Source of the DNA: Candidatus Saccharimonadota bacterium
Lineage (GTDB): Bacteria; Patescibacteriota; Gracilibacteria; Absconditabacterales; Absconditicoccaceae
DNA length: 32,000 bases
Direction: 5' to 3'
Assembly (NCBI GenBank): GCA_030429145.1
Contig: JAUIDC010000001.1
Span: 210,001 to 242,000 of the forward strand
Positions 1,977 through 28,507 of this stretch are shown in pieces. The notes beneath the pieces were generated by a model. That model was given only the letters and a program-made list of their open reading frames with translations. It made no database searches and was not told the origin of the DNA. The translations under genes were made by a program, and so were the position numbers. Within the stretch, counting starts at the first letter, position 1. The number at the start of each line of letters is the position of its first letter.

Positions 1977-3458
1977 CTAGTGATTTTTACCTGCTAAAAC
2001 TCTTTGCGCAGTCAACTCTCATGAGATGAGAGCCATTTGTGTACCTATTCATGGATTCGTATATGCTCATGTATAGTACAGACCCTTTACTTTTTTGCTA
2101 TAGTTATTTGGTCTAAATGCTGACGTTTGCATGAAAGTATGTGCTAAACCAAGTGCCGTGCCTTTGTATGCATTATATCTCTCCTGAAAATGCTTGATAT
2201 GGAATAACTTTTGATATCTGATACGATCTTGTAGATCGGGTATGTGACACACCTGTGAAATCATCGCCAATATTTTCTCTGTGTAAGCATCTTCCTGTCA
2301 CTGAGAGAGCTCAACACCTGGTGGACATGGCACGAGTACAAACATGTTTTCATGGCCTGCAGGCGCAACTGTATCATCACTCTCACTTGGTTTACAAATA
2401 TAGAGTGACGGATCTGTCGGCATCTCTTTCGTCTTAAAGATCTCTGCAAAGTTTTTCTTCCAGTCCTCGGTAAAGATCAAATTGTGATGTGTCAGCATTG
2501 GTAGCTTCCCCGCTACACCCAAGTAGAGAATATATGCTGAAGGAGCAAGTACTTTTTTCTTTCGATACGACTCAGGATAGGTTTGTTCATGTTTCTCGAG
2601 CAAAACCGTCTCTGTAAAATGCATATCCGCATTGGAAACGACGATGTCTGCCTCAGCGGTTTTCCCATCAGCAAGCTCTATTCCTGTTGTTCTACCATCT
2701 TCTGTCACGATACGAGTGACGGGGCTATTCACATATATTTTCACTCCATTTTTCTCTGCTATAGACTGCAACGACCTAATAATCTCATAGAGTCCTCCTT
2801 TAGGATACCATACGCCCTGCGCAAAGTCCACATGCGACATAAGTGCATAAATTGCCAGTGCATCATAGGGAGATGTTCCCAAAAAAAGCAAAGGATAACT
2901 CACTATTTTCTGCATCTCAGCACTCTTAAAAAATCTTTTCACATAACTCGCCATCTTCTGAAACACATTGAGCCTGATCCCATCTATAAATGTATCCCAT
3001 GAAAAAAAATCTAATACTGAATCGTAATTTCTATACACAAACTTCTTCATCGCGATAGTATACTGATACGACGCACGACATAGATACTCCTTAAATGGCT
3101 TACTCACACCCTTTTCTATCTTCTCAAATGTTTCCAAGTCTCTCTCAAGATCCGCAGCAATATCCACGATACGATTTTGCGGAGTAAAAAAAATTCTATA
3201 ACTTGGATCTAGTTTGGTCAGCTGCAAATGCTGCGTAATATCTTCCTCAACCTGTTCGTAAAAACGTTCAAACACATCAGGCATAAGATATCGACTTGGT
3301 CACATATCAAACCTATACCCATCCTCTTCGAGTAGCGATGCTCTTCCTCCCACATGATCATTTTTCTCGTAGAGGCTAACCTCATATCCGGCGCGTGCAA
3401 GATAAATTGCAGTGCTTAAACCACCTATTCCTCCACCAATGACAACAACTTTTTGCAT
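1977..3458 (-). CDS. crtI: phytoene desaturase (FAD-dependent, CrtI family)
   Basis: The N-terminal Rossmann motif is MQKVVVIGGGIGGLSTAIYLARAGYEVSLYEKNDHVGGRA. The C-terminal part reads YNAYKGTALGLAHT..FRPNNYSKKVKGLYYT-G-AYTNP-G-IG. Four track fragments join across TGA. TAG at 1977-1979 abuts the crtB ATG. Confidence 0.9.
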
Positions 3459-3478: not shown

Positions 3479-4753
3479 TTAAATAATGTTTACTAGTTCA
3501 CTGATATGTTTCATCCTCTGATGATCAATGATACTCATCTTTTCTCACATCTCTTTTCTTCTTTTCTCGTGCAATTTAGTAGGCAAAATTTGTCCGCCTA
3601 GACCTATCTCTCCTAGAAAAAGGAGATTTTTATCAACGACAATATTTTTGTATTGCGAATAGATACCTGCCGCAATAGCGAGATCAAGTCCACTATCCTT
3701 AAATGAAAACTCTCCTGGGATGTTCACAAAAATATCAAATCGACCAAGGTTTGCTTTTAAGTATCTCTCCAAAATAGCCACAATGAGATTTACTCTTGCA
3801 GGGTCAACTCCAACGATTTGACGGGTAGGAAACTTTCCTTTGGTCTTATTGAGGAGCACCTCTAGATGCACCACTACTGGACGACCATTGTCGATGCCGA
3901 CGGTCAGCACAGAACCGGGTATCGTCAGATTTGCCGAATTAATAATGCGTTCCTTAAGGTCATAAACCGGCTTGAGACCAAATAAGGTCATCTCAAAGAT
4001 CGCAACCTCATCGGTATTACCAAAACGGTTTTTGATGCAACGTAAGATACGATATTGTCAGTAGCGATCTCCTTCGAGATAGAGAACCACGTCAACAAGA
4101 TGTTCAAGATATTTAGGACCAGCAATCTCTCCACCTTTCGTCACGTGTCCTATCACCCACGCAGTGATATTTTTCTTTTTGCATAGCTCTGCTATCTTCT
4201 CTGCACAGTATTTAACCTGAGCAGGGCTACCAGATGCATTATCAATATTTTCTGAATAGATCGTCTGGATAGAGTCTATGATAATAAGATCATACTGTCC
4301 CGTCTCTGCTGTCAGTAAAATATCCTCTAGATGATTTGCATGAAAGATATCCATATGTTCATTCTGTTTATCTTCCGTAATCCTTGCTTGACGATCAACT
4401 ATCTGATCACTTTGTTCCTCACCTGAAAAATATGCCACACGTTGCGTCGTAAACTGTTGTACTATCTGCAAAGCAATAGTCGACTTACCAATACCTGGCT
4501 CTCCACCAAGGAGATAGACTCCTCCTTGTTTCAGTCACTTTGGAAAAATACGAGCAAGCTCTGTGTCTGATAGTGGGATATACTGCGAAGATTTCTTTTC
4601 AGTCACTTCTAGCTCTTGCCCTGTTGCAATCCCCTTCTTTTTTGACTTTCCTGTTATCCCACGCACTTCCGAAAATGAACCAAATGCTCAGCACTCCGAA
4701 CACTTTCCTAGCTTTACTGCACTGCTATGTCAGCAATCATTACATACGTACAT
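3479..4753 (-). CDS. radA: DNA repair protein RadA/Sms
   Basis: The zinc ribbon is MYVCNDC-G(TGA)-HSSAVKLGKCSEC-G(TGA)-AFGSF. The Walker A is GGEPGIGKST, followed by the KNRFG motif and a Lon-like C-terminal domain. TAA is at 3479-3481. Confidence 0.9.
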
Positions 4754-4828
4754 TTTCTACTCTCTCATCTCTAAAATCACCTTAATATACGCATACCCTA
4801 CGCATATGCAACTCAACCGCCATATTCA

Positions 4829-4856
4829 TTGACTTATTGCGTTATATTTATAGAAT
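4829..4856 (+). promoter_or_regulatory. sigma-70-type promoter upstream of rpoD
   Basis: TTGACT (4829-4834), a 16-nt spacer, then TAGAAT (4851-4856), about 35 nt upstream of the ATG at 4891. Confidence 0.5.
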
Positions 4857-4890
4857 TGTGAGAATTTACGTCTTTCGAAAGAAGAGCACC

Positions 4891-6132
4891 ATGGCAATGA
4901 GACAACTCAAAATCACCAAGGCAATTACCAATCGTGAATCACAATCACTTGAAAAATATCTACAAGAAATTGGGAAAATAGACCTCATCACTCCAGAAGA
5001 GGAGGTCCAACTTGCCCTACGTATAAAACAAGGAGATCAAGTCGCATTGGAAAAGCTGACGAAAGCCAATCTTCGTTTTGTAGTATCTGTTGCTAAACAG
5101 TATCAAAATCAGTGACTCTCTCTTTCGGACCTTATAAATGAATGAAATCTTGGTCTCATTAAAGCTGCCCAACGTTTTGATGAGACAAAAGGATTTAAAT
5201 TTATCTCATATGCCGTATGGCGAATTCGTCAATCAATTCTCCAAGCATTAGCTGAAAACTCACGCGTCGTTCGTCTTCCTCTCAATAAAGTCTGAATGTC
5301 CAATAAAATTAGTAAAGCCTATTCCAAGCTTGAACAAGACTTTGAACGTGAACCGTCTTCTGAAGAAATAGCCGAGATGCTCGAACGAGAAGTCGAGGAA
5401 GTCGAAAACACACTCTGAATAGGCGGGAAACACGCATCATTAGATGCACCTTTTGCTGGCAGCGAAGGAGAAGATGCTTTAACACTACTCGATTGTTTGA
5501 CATGATCAACAAGCGACTCTCTTTTGGAGGCTCTCGATCAAGAAGATCTCAGAACTCATATTAGATGTGCTCTTGCAAAGCTTACCAAAAAGGAAGCACA
5601 GATTGTTTCTCTCTATTTTGGCTTCGAGGGCGAACCAATGTCTCTACAAACTATTGGGGAAAGTCTTACTCCACCTCTCACTCGTGAAAGAGTAAGACAG
5701 ATCAAAGATAGGGCTGTGTGAAGACTAAAAAGGATTTTGCCAGATGTTATCAAATGAAATCATTTGTCGAAAGATTACGTTTCTCAAAATACTCGTACTA
5801 CTCCGAGACAAAGAGAAGAAATGAAGGGCAAACAAGAAGAACTTACAGAGACCCTCAATGCCTCCGCCCACTCTGTTTGGCAAGAACTACCGCTTGGATT
5901 GCGCTGACTGCCAAAAGACGTCCAGATTACTTGGATTATACAACACTCTCCGCTTGATCCGCATCATCAAGAGATGGCACTTCATTATTTTGTGAGAAAA
6001 AACTATAATCTCAATATTACTAAACCCGGGAATGAAAGCCTCAACGACCATTTCGTCAGAGAAGCAAAGCTGAAACGACAACCCAAAATTGAAAAAGTAC
6101 TAGGAAAGAAAATAGATTTTATCGGAAATTAA
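4891..6132 (+). CDS. rpoD: primary RNA polymerase sigma-70 factor (Bacteroidetes-like short RpoD core) with a 125-aa C-terminal extension under code 25
   Basis: It reads [29 protein letters not shown]...[58 protein letters not shown]...[26 protein letters not shown]. The 288-aa core ends at the TGA at 5755-5757. The first TAA/TAG in frame is at 6130-6132. Confidence 0.85.
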
Positions 6133-9306: not shown

Positions 9307-10323
9307 TTAGGCCGTACGTTTTTTTCTCACGTAGACGCCGGGAGTTTTCTCCATGATAAGTCAGTTTATCTCGAGTAGACTCACAGTGGTGAAAATGTCT
9401 GTGACAGTTCAGCGCGTATATGCCACAAACTGGCTGATATTAGCTTCTCCATGGTGGTCTATACATGCAAGGAGCTGTTGCTCTTCAGTGGTTAGTTGCT
9501 CCATCGCTCAGCTCTGCCGCTCGACTCCGTTCCTACGCGAAAAATACTGAGCCAAGAACTGATCCAAGCGGTCGAGCGGCAGTCTCTTCCCCGCAGCGAT
9601 CTGCTCATTGCTTCCTGCAGAAGAGTCTGCAAAGATACTCTGCATCGGCGCATAGACAGGCTTATTGAGCTTGTTTCACATCTCTGCCGTGATAAGCGAG
9701 CCCGAGCCCCTCTGCGCCTCCGGCAAAAAGATCAGATCAGCTAACCCAGCTATCAGGCGATTACGCTGCGGGAACGACCAGTCAGTCGGCACAAACTGAT
9801 GTTTGTATTCTGAGAGAATCATCCCTCCCTCACGGACAATCTGCTGCATCATCTCCCTCCTTCTACTTTTGAGATAATAGGCAAATCATCACCCCAATAC
9901 AGCTACTGTCGGGATCTTATGGCGAATCGATAAGTTATGAGATAACATATCAACGCCATTTGCCAAACCAGACACGGTGATGAGATCATACTGCGCTAGT
10001 TCCTCAAACAACATATGTATCACCTGCTCTGCGTAGGAACTAAGATTTCTCGGTCAGACAATAGCTATAGTGAGCCTGTTGAGCAGGTCGGCATCTCATT
10101 GAGCAAACAGTACTGCCGGTGCCGAAGGCACCGTCTTACACCTCCACGGATAACCTGTAGTTTCATCGTCCACTACCATACCATATATACTGTTTTTGTC
10201 CATCCGCTGCTCCACGGCAGAAATATCTACCTGTGGTAGCTCGTTATTGGCTTTTATCTGCGCCTGAGTCACCTCTGGGACCGTGGCAAAATAGTATGCT
10301 TTGTAGGGCGATTTTTTGTCCAT
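9307..10323 (-). CDS. dprA: DNA processing protein DprA (Smf)
   Basis: Motifs include TIAIV-G-PRNLSSYAEQ, ITVSGLANGVDMLSH, TVAVLG-G-G, FPQRNRLIAGLADLIFLPEAQRGSGSLITAEM and a C-terminal winged-helix-like tail. TAA is at 9307-9309. Confidence 0.85.
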
Positions 10324-10466
10324 TTTTATGTTTTTGATATAATTTGTAGTACGATAGTTATTCGGGCAAGCATTGCGACCAAACCGCTTCAGATCACGGT
10401 TTTTCTATCCATTCTTACGATTATCACACATTCTTTATGTATTTTTCAAAAAAAGTCATCAGTTAT

Positions 10467-10494
10467 TTGACACATTTACTTTTTATCGTATAAT
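10467..10494 (+). promoter_or_regulatory. sigma-70-type promoter upstream of the M23 peptidase gene
   Basis: TTGACA (10467-10472), a 16-nt spacer, then TATAAT (10489-10494). Confidence 0.55.
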
Positions 10495-10531
10495 ATAGAT
10501 GTGAAATTATTTAGAAGTTTTGCATAGCAAT

Positions 10532-11953
10532 ATGAGAACACACATCAAGACGCACTCACATCTACGAAAGAAAGTTGCCATTGTAGCGCTCCTTTTGACA
10601 CAAGCAACATCATTTGTGTTCAATGGAAAAGGCTTCAGTTGGTCATACCCACTCAAAGAAGTTTCTAAAAATGAGTGTAGAAAAATCCACTGGGATCAAC
10701 TTTCGGATGACTGTAAGCAACCCCTTCCAGAGATTGACAATGCAAACTACAATGCATACGTAAACAATCCTACCTATAGACTTATCTATAGTGTTCTCTG
10801 GGGTGGTACATACAATGACGGTTGGGACAACGATAAAGGCGGTCATGAAGGTGTAGACTTCGTAAGTTCTGAGGGAACTCCAGTATATTCTGTCGAAGAT
10901 GGAGTTGTTATCAAAGCAAGAGCACAAGCAGGTTACGGTAATGTAGTCGTTATCAAACACACCCTCGACAATGGAAATCCTGTCTACTCAACATACGGAC
11001 ATCTTTCAAATATTACTATCCCTGAAGGTATGTGGGTAAACGAAGGTGATATGATCGGAAGAGTTGGTCATGAAGGACTAGCATACGGAGACCATCTTCA
11101 CTTCGTTCTCAATACTACAGCTGACAACACCTACGCTTTCCGAGGTTGTCCTGATCTTTCAAGAGGTGAAATTGCCATCGGTAATCTTGGTCTTTGTAGA
11201 AACTACCTTACAGAAAGAACTGTTGATCCTATCGCATGGATCGAATCACAAGGACGTATAAACACTACCCATGGCATCCTCGCAGATACACACAATCACA
11301 GTAACGAAGCTATAACAAACTCAAATACTACAACTACCAACAACAAACCAACAGGAAGAAGAAGAATGCCTATCATTCCACTTCCCCCTGTCATCAACAA
11401 TACTTCTACAAACCCAGCAGTAAAAGAAAAAGCAGTATCAACTCCTATCAATGAAACAACTACACAAAAACCTACAAACAATACTACCAACAACACATCA
11501 AATACTACTACCACAACCACAACACGTAGATCACTCCCTTCAACAACACAAAATACTACTGCATTCGCATCGGTAGATAGTCAAAAGAAATCGACTGGTC
11601 CTGCAACGATAGAAGTGAACAACTCTACTAAACTCGGAGAAGACTTCCTCACAAAATATAATGTAGATATTGATACGTCTTTTGGTAACAGTATGACGGT
11701 AGGTCAAACAAGTAGCCTTGTTGTTACTGTCACTGATAAGAATACAGGAGCTCCATATGTAGGCATGCTTCCAAAAGAGATTACTATCATCCCTTCTGAA
11801 GCACTCTTTACACTCTCTCCTCAGGTAATCAGATTGACTAACAGCGAAGGTAAAGCACTTGTACTCATGAGTGCAAACAGAGCTGGAACAAGCGACCTTG
11901 TTATCTTCTACAATATGAAATCATTTGCTAAGATAGCTGTTAGCGTAAAATAA
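10532..11953 (+). CDS. secreted M23 (LytM-type) peptidoglycan endopeptidase with Thr/Asn-rich linker and C-terminal Ig-like domain
   Basis: The N-terminus is hydrophobic. The zinc-site motifs are GGHEGVDF and GDHLHF. A low-complexity T/N/P linker spans about 11290-11560. The C-terminal domain is beta-rich (TVTDKNTGAPYVG...). There is no in-frame TGA. The ATG at 10532 is preferred over the TTG at 10520. Confidence 0.85.
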   Translation: MRTHIKTHSHLRKKVAIVALLLTQATSFVFNGKGFSWSYPLKEVSKNECRKIHWDQLSDDCKQPLPEIDNANYNAYVNNPTYRLIYSVLWGGTYNDGWDNDKGGHEGVDFVSSEGTPVYSVEDGVVIKARAQAGYGNVVVIKHTLDNGNPVYSTYGHLSNITIPEGMWVNEGDMIGRVGHEGLAYGDHLHFVLNTTADNTYAFRGCPDLSRGEIAIGNLGLCRNYLTERTVDPIAWIESQGRINTTHGILADTHNHSNEAITNSNTTTTNNKPTGRRRMPIIPLPPVINNTSTNPAVKEKAVSTPINETTTQKPTNNTTNNTSNTTTTTTTRRSLPSTTQNTTAFASVDSQKKSTGPATIEVNNSTKLGEDFLTKYNVDIDTSFGNSMTVGQTSSLVVTVTDKNTGAPYVGMLPKEITIIPSEALFTLSPQVIRLTNSEGKALVLMSANRAGTSDLVIFYNMKSFAKIAVSVK

Positions 11954-16485: not shown

Positions 16486-16576
16486 AGATCATCTACAATA
16501 GTTTTGAAGAGTTCCATGTCGGAACTCTTTTTAAAATCGCTTGCTTCTTATCTCAACTTGATTACATATTCTCCTG

Positions 16577-17137
16577 ATGAAGATCACGAACAAGCGCACA
16601 TCATTTACTCTTATCGAAATGCTTATTGTCATCGTGATAATAGGTATTTTAGCTGCAGCTCTTGTACCGAGGCTGACAGCAGTACAGTGAAGGGCGAGAG
16701 ACAGTAAAAGAAAACTAGACCTCAGGGCACTCTACAATGCGAATGAAATATACCTACTGGATGTCGGACAATATGCTCACGATAGAAAGCCTTCCAATCC
16801 AGCCGCCTCACGTGACAGCACAGATACCTCACCTCGGATGCCAGAATTTAGTTGAATGATGTGAAGTATTCCTACAGACCCTCTCAATAGAAAAAATGGT
16901 TATCTCTATTCGACGGGCACATATATCTACGAGTATTCAAACCTTGTCACATGATCAAAAAATAGCTACATACTCTGAGCAAAGCTCGAAAACACTCAAG
17001 ATGTTGATAGGTGTGAGTTGAAAACATATAAGTACCGAAACCCTTGATCATCTGCTTATCTCAACGCTTACTGCTGAGCTGAAGGAAGGTATACTTACTA
17101 TTATGATCCGGCACAGCTTGCTAACGGCAAACACTAA
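16577..17137 (+). CDS. type IV pilin / GspG-like pseudopilin, paralog A
   Basis: It reads MKITNKRTS-FTLIEMLIVIVIIGILAAALVPRLTAVQ-G-RARDSKRKLDLRALYNANEIY. The C-terminal part shares PTDPLN, LENTQDVDRC...C and YYYDP..ANGKH with paralogs B-D. TAA is at 17135-17137. Confidence 0.8.
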
Positions 17138-19692: not shown

Positions 19693-20223
19693 ATGAAGAA
19701 AAAAACGAATAGAACATTTACGTTGATAGAGATGCTAATAGTCATTGTGATTATTGGTATTTTAGCTGCAGCTCTAGTTCCAAGATTAACCTCAATTCAA
19801 AGTAGAGCAAGAGACAGCAAAAGAAAGATTGACCTCAAAGCTATCTACAATGCAAATGAAATTCATAAGCTCGACTATGGCTACTACGCAGCGTCGGGTT
19901 CATACGTACAAAGTAGTGCAGCACAACCTCGAATGTCATGACTTACTGGATACTTAAGTAGTCTCCCAGTAGACCCAATAAATGACTATATTTCCGCCTC
20001 TCCTCTTGCTACAGGAACATATTTGTATACATATATCAGTCTGTATGGAGAAGGTTACTACTCATTAAGTGCAATGTTGGAAAACACAAAAGACCCTGAA
20101 AGATGCTGAGTTAAAACATATGTCTATAGCTCAAATCTCATACCAAGATGTTGAGCAGGCCATCTTGGAACAAGCCAACTCTACTATTACGATCCACCAA
20201 ATATGTTAGCAGGGAAGCATTAG
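19693..20223 (+). CDS. type IV pilin / GspG-like pseudopilin, paralog B
   Basis: It reads MKKKTNRT-FTLIEMLIVIVIIGILAAALVPRLTSIQSRARDSKRKIDLKAIYNANEIHKLDYGYYA...PVDPIN...LENTKDPERC-G-VKTY...RC-G-AGHLG...YYYDPPNMLAGKH. TAG is at 20221-20223. Confidence 0.85.
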
Positions 20224-20291: not shown

Positions 20292-20822
20292 ATGCAGAGA
20301 CAAATAAAAGCTTTCACACTGATCGAAATGCTGATAGTCATCGTGATTATCGGTATTTTGGCTGCGGCTTTAGTTCCAAGGCTTACTTCTATACAAGAAA
20401 GAGCCAGAGATACAAAGCGCAAGACAGACCTCAAGACAATATACAATGCAAATGAGATTCATAAGCTCGACTATGGCTACTACGCAAACTCTGGAGCATT
20501 CATCTATAGTAGTACCGTAAGTACATGGATGACTGGACTTGCTGGAACATATCTCACGAGTGTACCAGTAGATCCGATCAATATCACTCTTGCCTGATTT
20601 TCAACGTGAGCATACAACTATAAATATCGAAATACTTATGGCGAAGGATACTACTCTCTCATGGCTATGCTAGAAAACCAGAAAGATCCTGACAGATGTG
20701 GAGTAAAATCATATCTCTACTGGCCTGGTAGTTATCAAGTCAGATGTGGTGCTGGGCATCTATGACAAAGTCAGCTCTATCTCTATGACCCCAACAATAT
20801 CATTAACGGTAAGCACAATTAA
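20292..20822 (+). CDS. type IV pilin / GspG-like pseudopilin, paralog C
   Basis: It reads MQRQIKA-FTLIEMLIVIVIIGILAAALVPRLTSIQERARDTKRKTDLKTIYNANEIHKLDYGYYA...PVDPIN...LENQKDPDRCGVKSY...RCGAGHL-G-QSQLYLYDPNNIINGKHN. TAA is at 20820-20822. Confidence 0.85.
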
Positions 20823-20850
20823 GCCACCGTTGACTTATTTTATTTTCATA

Positions 20851-20879
20851 AAAAACACATTGCAAGAGTGTGTTTTTTG
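20851..20879 (+). terminator. rho-independent terminator after pilin C
   Basis: AAAAACACAT-tgcaaga-GTGTGTTTTTT forms a 6-bp core stem extended by A/T-run pairing, with a T-run at 20873-20878. Confidence 0.55.
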
Positions 20880-20887
20880 TTTATAAT
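20860..20887 (+). promoter_or_regulatory. sigma-70-type promoter driving the RT leader/ncRNA
   Basis: TTGCAA (20860-20865), a 16-nt spacer, then TATAAT (20882-20887). It overlaps the pilin C terminator and predicts a TSS near 20894, about 310 nt before the RT ATG. Confidence 0.45.
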
Positions 20888-20893
20888 CTGTTT

Positions 20894-21206
20894 TGCTGCG
20901 CGACGTATTTTGCTACGTCATTACCAATCAACAGCGACAGGTCATTTTTTGACTGCCAGTCGTTAATTGGGAGTAGCATATCCGTGGGGATTTGGGTGGC
21001 AGAAAATTACTGAAATATTACCCCCCAACCACACTCTGCTGGGTTAAGGATGTTTGCAATAGTTAGGAAAGTGTTCTTTTTTTAGAGAGGGAAACCTCAA
21101 CAACTTAAGAAACAGTAAGAATGAGTCTTGAAGGCTTGTTTATGCTACGCTGAAATAACTATTGCTCCCTTTTCTCGGCATCTATATCCGTATTACTATC
21201 ATCAAC
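20894..21206 (+). ncRNA. candidate structured non-coding RNA / template leader of the reverse transcriptase
   Basis: No plausible ORF. There are several local hairpins (20902-20919; 20935-20962; a long G/C-rich stem 20984-21034; a GNRA hairpin 21087-21098). A longer-range 8-bp pairing joins 20973-20980 to 21141-21148. G- and C-runs are atypical for this AT-rich genome. Confidence 0.4.
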
Positions 21207-23252
21207 ATGACGGATAATCATCTTGCAAAGTTTTATAGCGGTCCCGCCAGTATTCTGGCGGACCAACGCATACTGACAGCCGTCAGTATTTTTTTGCAAA
21301 CTACACAACAAGAGATCATAGATGTATTCCTACTCAGACAACAGTCAAAGCACCAATCTGAAGACGGACAAACGATAGGACAAGGGTACATACATTATCC
21401 TAAAAGAGAAAAAAAGAAATTTAGATATATCACCGAACCACTACCACAGTTGAGGAGTATTCAAGAAACTATTCTTTTTACTCTACAAGGAATTGAACAG
21501 CGCCATAGTATCATGCAAGAGGAACTAGAAGTATATGCTCGTCTGCAAGGCCACAATGTTGATATCTCACATATCAACAATCATCAAAAGGGACTTCAAT
21601 TTAACGAATCACCAATACAAAAAACCGCTATACATAGAGATGCTCGTATAGACAGACCCTACACTGTAGAAGTAGATATTGCCAATGCTTATTCTTCTCT
21701 ATCCGAAGAGAAACTTTTTTTCATACTACAAGATTTACTAAAAACACAATATAACATACTCCCCTTCAAAGCTCTTTCTCCCCTCGAAATACAAAAAGCA
21801 ACCGCACTCATAGGACATTTTCTCGCTTACGACAATCACCTTGCAACGTGAGCACCTACTAGCCCGTATATTTTTCATAAAGCCCTGAAAGCAACAGATG
21901 AAGACATAGTGGACACGTTAGCATCAACACCTATTGAAAATCCAGTATACACAAGATATCTTGATGATATTTATATTACATTCGACAGAATCAATACTCC
22001 GACTTCTTCCACCATCACAGAGTTTGCCTCATCTCTCTATCAAATATATGACCACCTCGAAGATGAGTGAACAATCGATGTCATCCCTAGACTTGCCAAA
22101 CTGCTACCAAAAATGCAACATTTTTTTACTGGTGCAGAGGTCATCATCAGCGATAACGATGCAAAAAGAGAGACAAGAAAACAGCTCGTAGAACTAAGAT
22201 CACTACTCATTGATTTTAAAAACATGTTATTGCATCGACCAGAACACGCCCTAGAATATAGCATCCAATATGTAGACGGATGATTGTCGGAAGAGTATTT
22301 TATAGAGTATTTTGAAAAAACTCTTACCATCCTCAATCGTTTATCAAATAGTTTATGAAAGAGCTTATTTACCACGATCAAAGCACTAGATTGATTCAAA
22401 AGAAAGCTAGATAAGACAACTCCTGACTATGAAATCACAAAGGAAAGCATTCAATTCGATATTGAGAAAATTTTAAGGAAGCATGGATGGCCAGTCAATA
22501 AGTCAAAGATAAAGACAAGATGACCATCTTCTCCATCCATGAGTACGATGCTTGGATTAGGAATAAACAACAGCAACAAAATTACAATTCCAAGCTGAGA
22601 GATAAAAAGAAAATTAGAAATGTACCGAAACATCCTTACGGATAAATCTCCTATTCCTCGCCACTTCAAACACAAAGAAAGTGGTATCTTAGATTATTGG
22701 AAAATACTAACCTCTCTGCAAGGATACAAAGAATATATTCTTGAAATAAAGTGAGCTGATAAAAAAATTTCTAAAAAAGAAAAAATGCAATATATGCGTC
22801 ATCTAGATGGAATTTTCACAAAAGAAGAGGCAATCCTTATCAGAAGAATAGAGAAAAAATGTGCTTCACACTTTGGCATTAGTGTAGAAGAAGCACATGA
22901 ACTTATTTTTTCGGCCCGAACAGTAGAAAAAGAACAAGCATATGCTATGAGAAAAGGAAGAGCCTATCAGGATGGTGATATTATTTTTGATGAAAACGGA
23001 GAGCCAGTAGATACAAGAGATATTCCTCGGGAGTTAGCAGATTCAAATCTCCCCCCTTTTGAAGAACTATATAACGAGAACTGGTATGATCCAACGAAAA
23101 TACCATGATATATTGACGAATCTCTTGCCCCCATTGATGAGAGAGAGATCCCATGGGAACTACTAGCAGAACAGAAACAAGATAATAATAGAGAGGTTGA
23201 ATCAGAAAAACACGACAACCGACCTGATAATATCGATGATCTACCATTCTAA
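21207..23252 (+). CDS. stand-alone reverse transcriptase (retron/UG-Abi-like palm motifs) with internal insertion and long acidic C-terminal extension
   Basis: RT motifs in order are KFRYITEP / LRSIQETIL (1-2), VEVDIANAYSSL (3), T-G(TGA)-APTSPYIF (4), YTRYLDDIYITF (5, YxDD), ILRKHGWPVNKSKIKT (6) and MLGLGINNSNKITIPS (7). The protein is 681 aa read through 9 TGA. TAA is at 23250-23252. The ATG at 21207 is preferred over the TTG at 21162. Confidence 0.85.
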
Positions 23253-23316: not shown

Positions 23317-24741
<1,425 letters not shown>

Positions 24742-27516: not shown

Positions 27517-27891
27517 ATGAAACAGCTACTTCTTAACACTGCTATCCAGCAGTCTCAGGAAGGCGGCTGGATAAAATCATTTGAACATCAAAGAGTATGT
27601 ATTGCTATAGGGATAGTTATCCTCATAGGTCTGACAATATTCTTTGTCCGACTATGGTACATGCGAAAAAAGTATCCACCTGGAAAAGGGAAAATATATA
27701 CAATATCATACCCTGGACCAAAGGCACGATCTGCGAAAGAGTTTCTTAAAGAGCGACACGATGCATTATTCATTAGAATTATTGTGCAAACGCTCTGTAA
27801 AGAAACCAATGTATGGCATGCGACTATTGAATGTTATTGAAAGAGCCCTCTGTATATCAGGGGGCTTTTATGAAAGAAAAAACATTTGTAA
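27517..27891 (+). CDS. hypothetical single-pass membrane protein
   Basis: MKQLLLN... has one TM (VCIAIGIVILIGLTIFFVRLWY). The standard-code end is the TGA at 27838. Under code 25 it continues for 16 codons to TAA at 27889-27891, through a hairpin at 27844-27866. Confidence 0.4.
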
Positions 27892-27961
27892 ATTGGTGAA
27901 TTGTTCCCTATATTGAAGAAGAAAAATATGTGTTATCCAGTTTCTATTAAGATTTTTTAAT

Positions 27962-28507
27962 ATGGTTTTATCATCAATGTTTACGTATAGAAAACTCTCT
28001 TTTACGTTAATAGAAATGCTAATAGTTATCGTTATTATAGGTGTTTTGGCGGCAGCTTTAGTACCGAGACTCACCTCTCTGCAAGGTAGAGCAAGAGACA
28101 CCAAACGCAAGGCAGACTTCACGACCATCTTGAATGCAAATGAAATATTTTTTATAGACAACACGAGATATGCTTCACATGGATGAGTTGGCTATCTTGT
28201 CAGCACTGCCTCTCAACCTTGGATACCTGAACTGTCAGGCGTACTAGCGACCATACCTACTGACCCGATCAATGACAATGCTTATTATAGATACACCTAT
28301 GCGTCTGTCTATGCTACACCTGTACACACCTACGACCTGCATGTTTCGTTAGAAAATCGTAATGACCCAGACAGATGTGGGGTTAAGGTCTACTACTCCA
28401 ACACCCATTTCCCGAGTAGCCATGTACGTTGCAGTTTATGACAAACAGGTATAAACAACGGAATGATCTACGATGTTTCTCCAAACATTAAAAATTCTGT
28501 CTACTAA
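27962..28507 (+). CDS. type IV pilin / GspG-like pseudopilin, paralog D
   Basis: It reads MVLSSMFTYRKLS-FTLIEMLIVIVIIGVLAAALVPRLTSLQGRARDTKRKADFTTILNANEIF...PTDPIN...LENRNDPDRCGVKVY...RCSL-G-Q. TAA is at 28505-28507. Confidence 0.8.

Follow-up and report, generated by a model that had tools for sequence, protein, structure and literature searches.

A stretch of 32,000 nucleotides (nt) from contig JAUIDC010000001.1 of a Candidatus Saccharimonadota bacterium, called the window throughout, carries a gene for a reverse transcriptase (RT) that is preceded by its own promoter and a structured leader. An earlier note on this DNA had described the locus as a candidate retron-like or defence-associated reverse transcriptase (DRT)-like pair of an RT and a noncoding RNA (ncRNA). 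The retron part of that label is upheld by profile searches and by Foldseek, while the DRT part is not, since the RT is of a different clade. [quoted passage not shown] Its role is probably defensive. Its ancestry is that of retrons, from which it is set apart by its RT architecture, RNA topology and tail.

To our knowledge, nearly all retron-type systems described so far come from well-studied phyla. Few defence systems are known from the ultra-small, host-dependent bacteria of the candidate phyla radiation (CPR). Neither retrons nor such RTs were found described for Absconditabacteria, Gracilibacteria or Patescibacteria in the open-access full-text literature, in agreement with the earlier suggestion that an RT–ncRNA system in a CPR bacterium using genetic code 25 would be undescribed. 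A whole clade of retron-like RTs emerges here in CPR bacteria, mostly in genomes where TGA encodes glycine, and it adds to the known repertoire a palm insert, an RNA domain outside the a1/a2-like helix, a terminator over the coding sequence and an SSB-tip-like tail.

A retron-like reverse transcriptase in a recoded genome

As shown in Table 1, the RT has the full series of fingers, palm and thumb motifs, including the YLDD that the earlier note had pointed out. The catalytic residues are invariant among homologs (motif A Asp157, Tyr251 and Asp253/Asp254 of YLDD, and the motif-D lysine Lys434), and the enzyme is predicted to be catalytically intact. Known retrons were taken as types I–XIII of Mestre et al. 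(2020), in the form that PADLOC uses. Matches in PADLOC and NCBIfam were exclusively to retron RTs (RT_III-A, 6.6e-17; retron_St85, 8.8e-16), with scores far below the family cutoffs of those models. When a profile of the family was compared with all PDB sequences, retron Ec86 came first (9e-32), followed by Kva2, Ec67, Ec83, Ec78 and Eco8, whereas group II RTs reached 2e-6 and Drt3a 6e-4. In Pfam, RVT_1 is the sole domain, at a borderline 29.4 bits against a cutoff of 29.6. An AlphaFold (AF2) model built from a 31-sequence alignment, with Trp in the query at the nine TGA sites, reached a predicted local distance difference test score (pLDDT) of 81.5 and a predicted template modelling (TM) score of 0.75; a model from a 5-sequence alignment gave a pLDDT of 57 and was not used. 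The ten best Foldseek matches to the former were all retron RTs (best E = 3e-9), and they span whole retron RTs of ~310 amino acids (aa) with TM scores of 0.64–0.67 relative to the target. Because the best profile, PDB-sequence and Foldseek matches are retron RTs, the enzyme is placed, by sequence and modelled fold, among the RTs of retrons, although it fits none of the defined types; no type stands out, as all score about equally and over the fingers and palm only. The earlier note could not place the RT in any named clade, which still applies to the single retron type and no longer to the clade.

The hallmark motifs of retron RTs are NAxxH before motif 3 and VTG in motif 7. NAxxH and (I/V)TG are retained in the wider family of the RT described below, and in the window RT the place of the retron xVTG is occupied by MLGLGI. 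The close subfamily has an additional fingers segment of ~45 aa. The insert between motifs 5 and 6 is all-helical, measures ~160 aa and is common to the wider family; its helices (residues 265–425) have pLDDT values mostly of 70–96, and the alignment to Ec86 splits between Ec86 residues 211 and 212 at the insert site.

The frame is open under translation table 25 from 21159 to 23252, and reading through TGA doubles the summed length of the window's open reading frames (ORFs) longer than 100 aa. In the seven RT genes of the close family (the window and the loci L001–L004, L006 and L008), a TGA stands opposite Gly in 142 cases and opposite Trp in one. At aa 215, TGA encodes the glycine of LATGAPTSP, an invariant residue that is written as TGA in three of the genes (also in L001 and L008) and as GGA, GGC or GGT in the other four (L002, L003, L004 and L006). 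Because the TGA codons align with Gly across seven genes, the RT gene is native to code 25, the use of which is confirmed; the nine TGA-Gly codons read earlier, one of them in the invariant motif glycine, are borne out by this codon alignment. Recoded genomes thus conceal such RT systems from standard (table 11) annotation.

Five full-length relatives with 38–53% identity were found by a word-indexed search of 5.8 billion proteins, and HMMER, run exhaustively over 1.84 billion representatives, gave one further close relative, P0006. Together with the RT of locus L008, which was reached through a scan of GTDB for the neighbouring genes, these homologs (P0001–P0006 and L008) are 36–54% identical to the RT over 90–100% of its length. 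Word-indexed homology searches using alignments yielded no further relatives, and protein-pattern scans for the RT over GTDB and JGI contigs gave no match, although they missed L008 and are unreliable. The wider family found by HMMER comprises 52 proteins at E < 1e-10, mostly of 490–550 aa, in ~50 clusters at 50% identity and mostly of code 25. Many of these RTs have Trp in place of an expected Gly (LPQWAPTS), which indicates code-25 genomes whose genes were translated with code 4.

The C-terminal tail of the RT is acidic and predicted to be disordered, and no enzymatic domain was found in it by Pfam or in the AlphaFold model. Tails in the close family contain PxDxRDIP[W/R]E once or twice, and five of the seven close homologs terminate in [ND]xDD[LI]PF, L002 and L008 being without this tip. 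About one-third of the wider family, at ~20% identity, has the same ending (DPNDIPF, DDDELPF, DGDDLPF, EEDDFPF, DDDLPF); DD[LI]PF-type ends occur, for instance, in P0014, P0021, P0029, P0033, P0039 and P0040. It has been reported that the C-terminal hexapeptide of SSB, DDDIPF, is a conserved docking tip for many genome-maintenance proteins (PMC5872125). The two share a disordered acidic tail ending in D-D-[LI]-P-F at the extreme C-terminus, while the tail of the RT sits on a polymerase and has extra internal DIP[W/R]E motifs, and the SSB tip is carried by an ssDNA binder with an oligonucleotide/oligosaccharide-binding fold. Judging by this resemblance, the RT tail may act as an SSB-tip-like ligand for SSB-client proteins, which suggests a route by which an RT without an effector could talk to the cell. 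No description of an RT with an SSB-type tail was found in the open-access full-text literature.

A structured leader that runs into the coding sequence

The leader is a real structured RNA. The TTGCAA-16-TATAAT promoter noticed earlier is the best promoter-like site of the region (10/12 match), where the number of such sites is near chance (10 found, 9 expected), and a promoter with a 16–17-nt spacer stands at the equivalent place in each of L001–L004, L006 and L008. The predicted start, ~20894, is the first base of helix P1. The -35 box falls in the loop of a hairpin at the end of the upstream pilin gene, which is likely the terminator of that gene. No credible ORF was found in the leader. 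It folds more stably than its shuffles, with z = -2.2 for 326 nt and z = -5.3 for 407 nt that include the 5' end of the ORF. The ~310-nt hairpin-rich leader proposed earlier is thus supported by folding and by covariation in relatives, except for its end at the ATG; the conserved structure runs on to ~21295.

The leaders of the homologous loci can be aligned over their first ~170 nt and again just 5' of the ATG. On a plain MAFFT alignment, RNAalifold returned the three-way junction, the small hairpin and the long-range helix, with 15 of 32 pairs compensatory. In the covariance-model alignment of the seven sequences, a kind of alignment that is biased towards the model's own structure, 88% of cells are paired and 15 of 21 pairs are changed on both sides. 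For this structure as a whole, none of 500 shuffles reached the observed values and the covariation score was 0.66 against at most 0.19 in slid controls, figures whose significance is overstated with seven related sequences. All pairs of P2 (6/6) and P3 (5/5) are changed on both sides and both helices are 100% paired; P1 occurs in every sequence, in slightly shifted registers that lower its count. A covariance model of this 5' domain (R1) scored only RT-upstream sites in 84–125 kb of sequence and recovered a site on which it had not been trained, directly 5' of the RT in L008 (E = 4.8e-11). Leader conservation and covariation extend to all homologs.

The long-range helix is a perfect 10/10 inverted repeat (I7) in the window. 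Its inner 7 bp are paired in 47 of 49 cells across the seven loci, with 5 of 7 pairs changed on both sides, a count equalled in 11 of 2000 permutations with the helix registered by hand. The inner core (21159–21165) ends 36–41 nt 5' of the ATG in six of the seven loci and 26 nt in L006. The segment that it encloses measures 74–125 nt across homologs and is not conserved in sequence; stops interrupt every frame in five of the seven loci, and stop-free frames are found in L003 (one) and L006 (two).

Inside the RT coding sequence, two hairpins are conserved in all seven RT genes through compensatory synonymous changes. The second of them, which is terminator-like, is followed by U6–7 and has all 8 pairs 100% paired. 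Three of these pairs are double-changed through synonymous codons, as in CUG..GUC to CUU..GUA in L006. This hairpin is probably the ncRNA's 3' end and an attenuator of RT expression, and translation of the RT would then depend on transcriptional read-through. Because conserved structure and the terminator extend ~90 nt into the ORF, the RNA is taken as ~400 nt, with ends at 20894 and 21295 set by promoter and terminator.

Because the leader is syntenic and has an RNase-P-like GAGG..GUCC string, a housekeeping RNA was suspected; RNase P, tmRNA, 6S and SRP RNAs were rejected, as no relevant Rfam family matched the leader, whether the gathering score or a limit of E = 10 was applied, and no tRNA or tmRNA was seen in it by ARAGORN.

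Table 1. Coordinates of the RT–ncRNA element (window numbering) and of the ORFs that follow the RT in related loci (numbering of each locus)
Feature	Position	Strand	Remarks
Hairpin AAAAAACACA/TGTGTTTTTT	20850–20878	+	end of upstream pilin gene; inverted repeat I5, 10 nt, 100% complementary
Sigma-70-like promoter	20860–20887	+	-35 TTGCAA 20860–20865, 16-nt spacer, -10 TATAAT 20882–20887
Whole predicted ncRNA, ~400 nt	20894–21295	+	minimum free energy -126 kcal/mol, z = -5.3, 0/100 shuffles as stable
5' three-way junction	20894–20978	+	helices P1, P2, P3
P1	20894–20899 with 20973–20978	+	then unpaired G20900-C20901
P2	20902–20907 with 20914–20919	+	loop UUUUGC
P3	20924–20928 with 20966–20970	+	variable-length extension
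P4 hairpin AUCC-GUGG-GGAU	20980–20991	+	86% paired; closing pair A-U/G-C/G-U; then conserved UUGGG
Irregular G-rich/C-rich hairpin region UUGGG...CCCCCCAACCAC	20992–21036	+	from single-sequence folds; motifs conserved, candidate pairing
Long-range helix, 5' strand	21037–21065	+	UGCUGGG, AAGG, GCAAUAGUUA; pairs with 21156–21180
Variable interior of long-range helix	21066–21155	+	candidate msd-like template; GAAA-tetraloop hairpin GAGG-GAAA-CCUC
Long-range helix, 3' strand	21156–21180	+	UAACUAUUGC, CCUU, CUCGGCA
RT gene	21207–23252	+	681 aa from first ATG at 21207; code 25; nine in-frame TGA = Gly
Hairpin inside ORF	21240–21264	+	codons 12–20; 86% paired, 2 pairs changed on both sides
Terminator-like hairpin AUACUGAC-AGCC-GUCAGUAU and U-tract	21270–21295	+	inside codons 22–30 (ILTAVSIFL)
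RT fingers and palm, motifs 1–5	21384–21983	+	RYITEP...IQ, K-T-A-I-H, VDIANAYSS, LATGAPTSP, YTRYLDD
Helical insert, ~160 aa	21990–22481	+	aa 262–425, between motifs 5 and 6
RT motifs 6–7 and thumb	22482–22754	+	GWPVNKSKIKT, MLGLGI, LQGYKEYILEIKG; second stretch aligned to Ec86
Disordered acidic tail	22917–23249	+	aa 571–681; 30 D/E against 13 K/R; pLDDT <50
Tail motif PVDTRDIPRELADSN	23004–23048	+	conserved in close family
Tail motif PIDEREIPWELLAE	23130–23171	+	conserved in close family
C-terminal tip NIDDLPF	23229–23249	+	resembles SSB hexapeptide DDDIPF
ORFs 3' of RT, L001	5387–6507		244 aa, 106 aa
ORFs 3' of RT, L002	7974–10773		484 aa, 440 aa
ORF 3' of RT, L003	8097–9428		443 aa
ORF 3' of RT, L004	8133–8435		100 aa
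ORF 3' of RT, L008	10818–11807		329 aa

Genomic setting, proposed mechanism and competing explanations

The module adjoins yidC in eight loci, one of which (L005) duplicates the window, leaving seven distinct ones. Their common gene order is TPM-phosphatase, LemA, YidC, (pilins), ncRNA, RT and variable genes, followed by (atpD), a 208-aa membrane protein, L31 and NDK. Between genomes the neighbours are 50–91% identical (AtpD 91%, YidC 83–84%, the 208-aa protein 69–81%) and the RT 36–54%; the RT module evolves faster than its neighbours. In a more distant genome of 1.1 Mb labelled Ca. Peribacteria (OZ246420, locus L009), the 208-aa gene lies directly beside yidC and the RT is absent there; the empty site lies at 10001–11606 of the locus, and R1 found no match to the ncRNA across the 20.6 kb of L009. 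Directly 3' of the RT, co-oriented uncharacterised ORFs follow in L001–L004 and L008 (Table 1). The 244-, 440-, 443- and 484-aa proteins form one family and the 100- and 106-aa proteins another; none of these ORFs has a Pfam match or a counterpart in the window, and they are possibly accessory or effector genes. The description of the RT as stand-alone thus holds in the window and fails in five of the six other close-family loci. Taken together, the fixed site, the fast evolution, the variable cargo and the empty site in a relative look more like a small defence hotspot than like a core function.

Compared with known systems, retrons such as Ec86/Eco1 and Ec67/Eco2 have the RT nearest in sequence and fold. 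As in retrons, the RT gene is directly preceded, on its own strand, by a promoter and a structured ncRNA, and a long-range helix ends shortly before the RT start and encloses a variable segment, here the 3' part of the RNA only. Single-gene retrons (I-C, VII, XI and XII) likewise have a long C-terminal extension on the RT. The element differs from retrons in fitting no single type, with matches limited to the fingers and palm, in its degenerate NAxxH and VTG motifs and its helical insert between motifs 5 and 6, in the conserved 5' domain outside the a1/a2-like helix, in the terminator embedded in the ORF, and in a C-terminal extension that is a predicted disordered SSB-tip-like tail without an enzyme domain. 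Moreover, it has no separate effector, and its hosts are code-25 CPR bacteria.

On the retron-like reading, transcription from the promoter would mostly halt at 21295 to give an ncRNA of ~400 nt, while occasional read-through would produce the RT mRNA, so that RNA would be in excess over enzyme. The invariant 5' three-way junction would be the binding site of the RT, much as msr is for retron RTs. The long-range helix would play the part of the retron a1/a2 helix and present the variable segment that it encloses as the template for a short complementary DNA (cDNA). Alternatively, the variable P3 arm (20924–20970) of the 5' junction could serve as template, as P1, the unpaired G-C, P2 and P3 mimic a miniature a1-G-msr-msd-a2. 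The acidic tail ending in DDLPF would dock in the pocket that SSB-interactome proteins use for the SSB tip, and this docking would couple the ribonucleoprotein (RNP) or the cDNA to ssDNA-processing proteins of the host (or of a phage). Such coupling could serve maturation of the product (e.g., by RNase H or exonucleases) or provide a sensing or effector arm; in this genome, the RT's own C-terminal extension would be the sole effector. An anti-phage role is proposed because of the fast evolution at a fixed site with variable cargo, the descent from retrons and the relative in which the site is empty. If the RNA is the template, the element is a compact single-protein RT–ncRNA pair of possible interest for retron-style DNA production.

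Several points weigh against this reading. Unlike in a canonical retron, the a1/a2-like helix is preceded on its 5' side by ~140 nt whose structure is conserved, and the enclosed segment is short for an msr plus an msd. No branching G could be assigned in the window RNA; an unpaired G follows both candidate a1 strands (G20900; G21066-G21067) and is not diagnostic. In the close subfamily, the retron hallmarks are reduced to KTAIH for NAxxH and MLG for VTG, with only the His and the Gly kept. There is no effector gene in the window, and the downstream ORFs of the relatives are unrelated to known effectors and not kept in all loci. The RNA comparison covers only seven related sequences, the SSB-tip assignment derives from motif resemblance, and the transcript ends, template, product, tail partners and biological role are inferred throughout. 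The strictly syntenic position would fit a housekeeping role just as well.

Such a role is the first alternative. The RT would be a domesticated enzyme with a fixed, non-immune function of the CPR lineage, for instance to restart replication, fill gaps or repair breaks, and its SSB-like tip would recruit it to SSB-client proteins. This would be analogous to the role of G2L4 RTs, which are likewise free-standing chromosomal RTs without mobile-element features; the analogy is possibly one of role only, as G2L4 belongs to the group II clade, has no dedicated ncRNA and is a weak structural match to the RT model (Foldseek E = 3e-5, TM 0.2–0.3). The same site in seven distinct loci among the core genes yidC, atpD, L31 and ndk, the invariant catalytic residues and the single copy in the window without effector or mobile-element genes all fit this explanation, and the SSB-tip motif is a hallmark of genome-maintenance hubs (PMC5872125). 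Against it stand the much faster evolution of the RT than of its neighbours, the variable adjacent cargo, the site that is empty in one relative and the L002 and L008 homologs without the terminal tip. Furthermore, all closest relatives of the RT are retron RTs, whose known roles are defensive. We consider the housekeeping explanation rather unlikely.

A bolder form of the retron-like reading, which we hold only tentatively and would not bet on, is that a retron-derived RT–RNA particle resident in the CPR lineage acts as an SSB mimic through DDLPF and DIP[W/R]E. If so, it could be a decoy sensor for phage proteins that hijack the host SSB, or it could pass the DNA made by the RT on to enzymes of replication restart or recombination. 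Reverse transcription would then be coupled to the SSB interactome in a way not known before, with the ncRNA dosage set by a terminator within the RT's own coding sequence.

Somewhat less likely still, the leader might be a cis-regulatory 5' untranslated region only, that is, an attenuator or an autoregulatory RT-binding site, with the RT using another template or none, by protein-primed or untemplated synthesis like that of AbiK and Abi-P2. The conserved terminator and start-codon-proximal hairpin, in and just before the ORF, would suit a regulatory leader, as would the lack of an assignable branching G or msd-like long hairpin in the window. However, a multi-helix RNA of ~300 nt with a junction, a GNRA hairpin and a long-range helix exceeds what an attenuator needs, and its interior varies freely while the closing helix is kept, as in templates. 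Retron-clade RTs are known to use RNA encoded in cis, and Abi-type RTs match far worse.

It has been reported that DRT2 and DRT9 consist of one RT gene that follows a structured, conserved ncRNA driven by a promoter of its own, and that they have no separate gene for an effector (PMC12483538). The element shares this layout of a single RT preceded by a structured ncRNA with a promoter, as the earlier note had stated for retrons, DRT2 and DRT9 alike. A mechanism like those reported for DRT2 and DRT9 (PMC12483538) would mean rolling-circle or iterative copying into concatemeric (Neo-like gene) or homopolymeric (poly-dA) DNA, and the helix does bring the two ends of the enclosed segment together and a conserved U-run is present. 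This alternative is nevertheless improbable. The RT does not appear to be a UG2 or UG28 enzyme; DRT2 was the 24th Foldseek match (E = 1e-4, against 3e-9 for retrons), and all top PADLOC matches were retron models. No DRT9 structure was among the PDB and Foldseek matches listed, and PADLOC 2.0 may lack a DRT9 model. A DRT2 Neo-type template was rejected because, in five of the seven loci, no frame of the enclosed segment is free of stops. The sole invariant U-run is the tail of the terminator-like hairpin and follows a G+C-containing hairpin, as in a terminator; no evidence of a DRT9-like U-loop template was found in the element's RNA.

A member or remnant of a mobile retroelement or a decaying pseudogene, for which only the borderline RVT_1 score as sole Pfam domain might speak, is hardly credible, as the ORF is intact in seven genomes with invariant catalytic residues, group II RTs match ~25 orders of magnitude worse than retron RTs, an Rfam scan at E up to 10 found no intron ribozyme, and direct repeats in the 32 kb are limited to the pilin paralogs, with no template repeat/variable repeat pair of a diversity-generating retroelement. 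None of the outcomes that the earlier note had named as refuting it was observed. A phage origin was rejected as well, as IMG/VR gave only generic RT-core matches.

Neighbouring genes and the wider family

The position between a pilin gene and a convergent atpD, reported earlier, is confirmed and extended; two pilin-like genes lie 5' of the module (19693–20223 and 20292–20822), and atpD lies 3' (23317–24741). As had been claimed, no Cas, integrase, maturase or known effector gene, and likewise no mobile-element gene, was found near the RT in the 32-kb window. The window holds four paralogous type IV pilin-like genes in all, the other two at 16535–17137 and ~27830–28507. These paralogs constitute the direct repeats D1–D3, which are 61–78% identical, and it is only in the window genome that two of them separate yidC from the RT module. 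A conserved box of ~40 nt, TATGTATAGGGATATAAGGCAAGAATACAAGAATAGTATT, is located between yidC and the ncRNA promoter in L001 (~3045–3085), L003 (~5440–5480) and L004 (~5628–5668); it was not seen in the window, a weak negative because the search pattern was off by one base.

Four loci of the wider family were inspected (L007, L010, L012 and L013). L010 and L013 have noncoding leaders of 480–520 nt with their own promoter and a co-oriented ORF 10–15 nt after the RT, while the spacers upstream of the RT are short in L007 and L012. R1 finds no similar RNA at the wider-family RTs, and the leaders are not detectably homologous by sequence. The L010 leader (4594–4990), from a standard-code organism, folds much as a classic retron msr-msd does (z = -10), being packed with GUGUCACACAC-type hairpins that are enclosed by a terminal, a1/a2-like helix of 9 bp. 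A 316-aa ORF without a Pfam match starts 10 nt after this RT. Downstream of the RT in L007, two direct repeats of ~300 nt (4300–4560 and 4640–4900) have terminator-like ends on the minus strand and may be an RNA partner in a different position. In L013, a tRNA-like sequence (~240–315) lies directly upstream of the promoter and leader of RT P0012.

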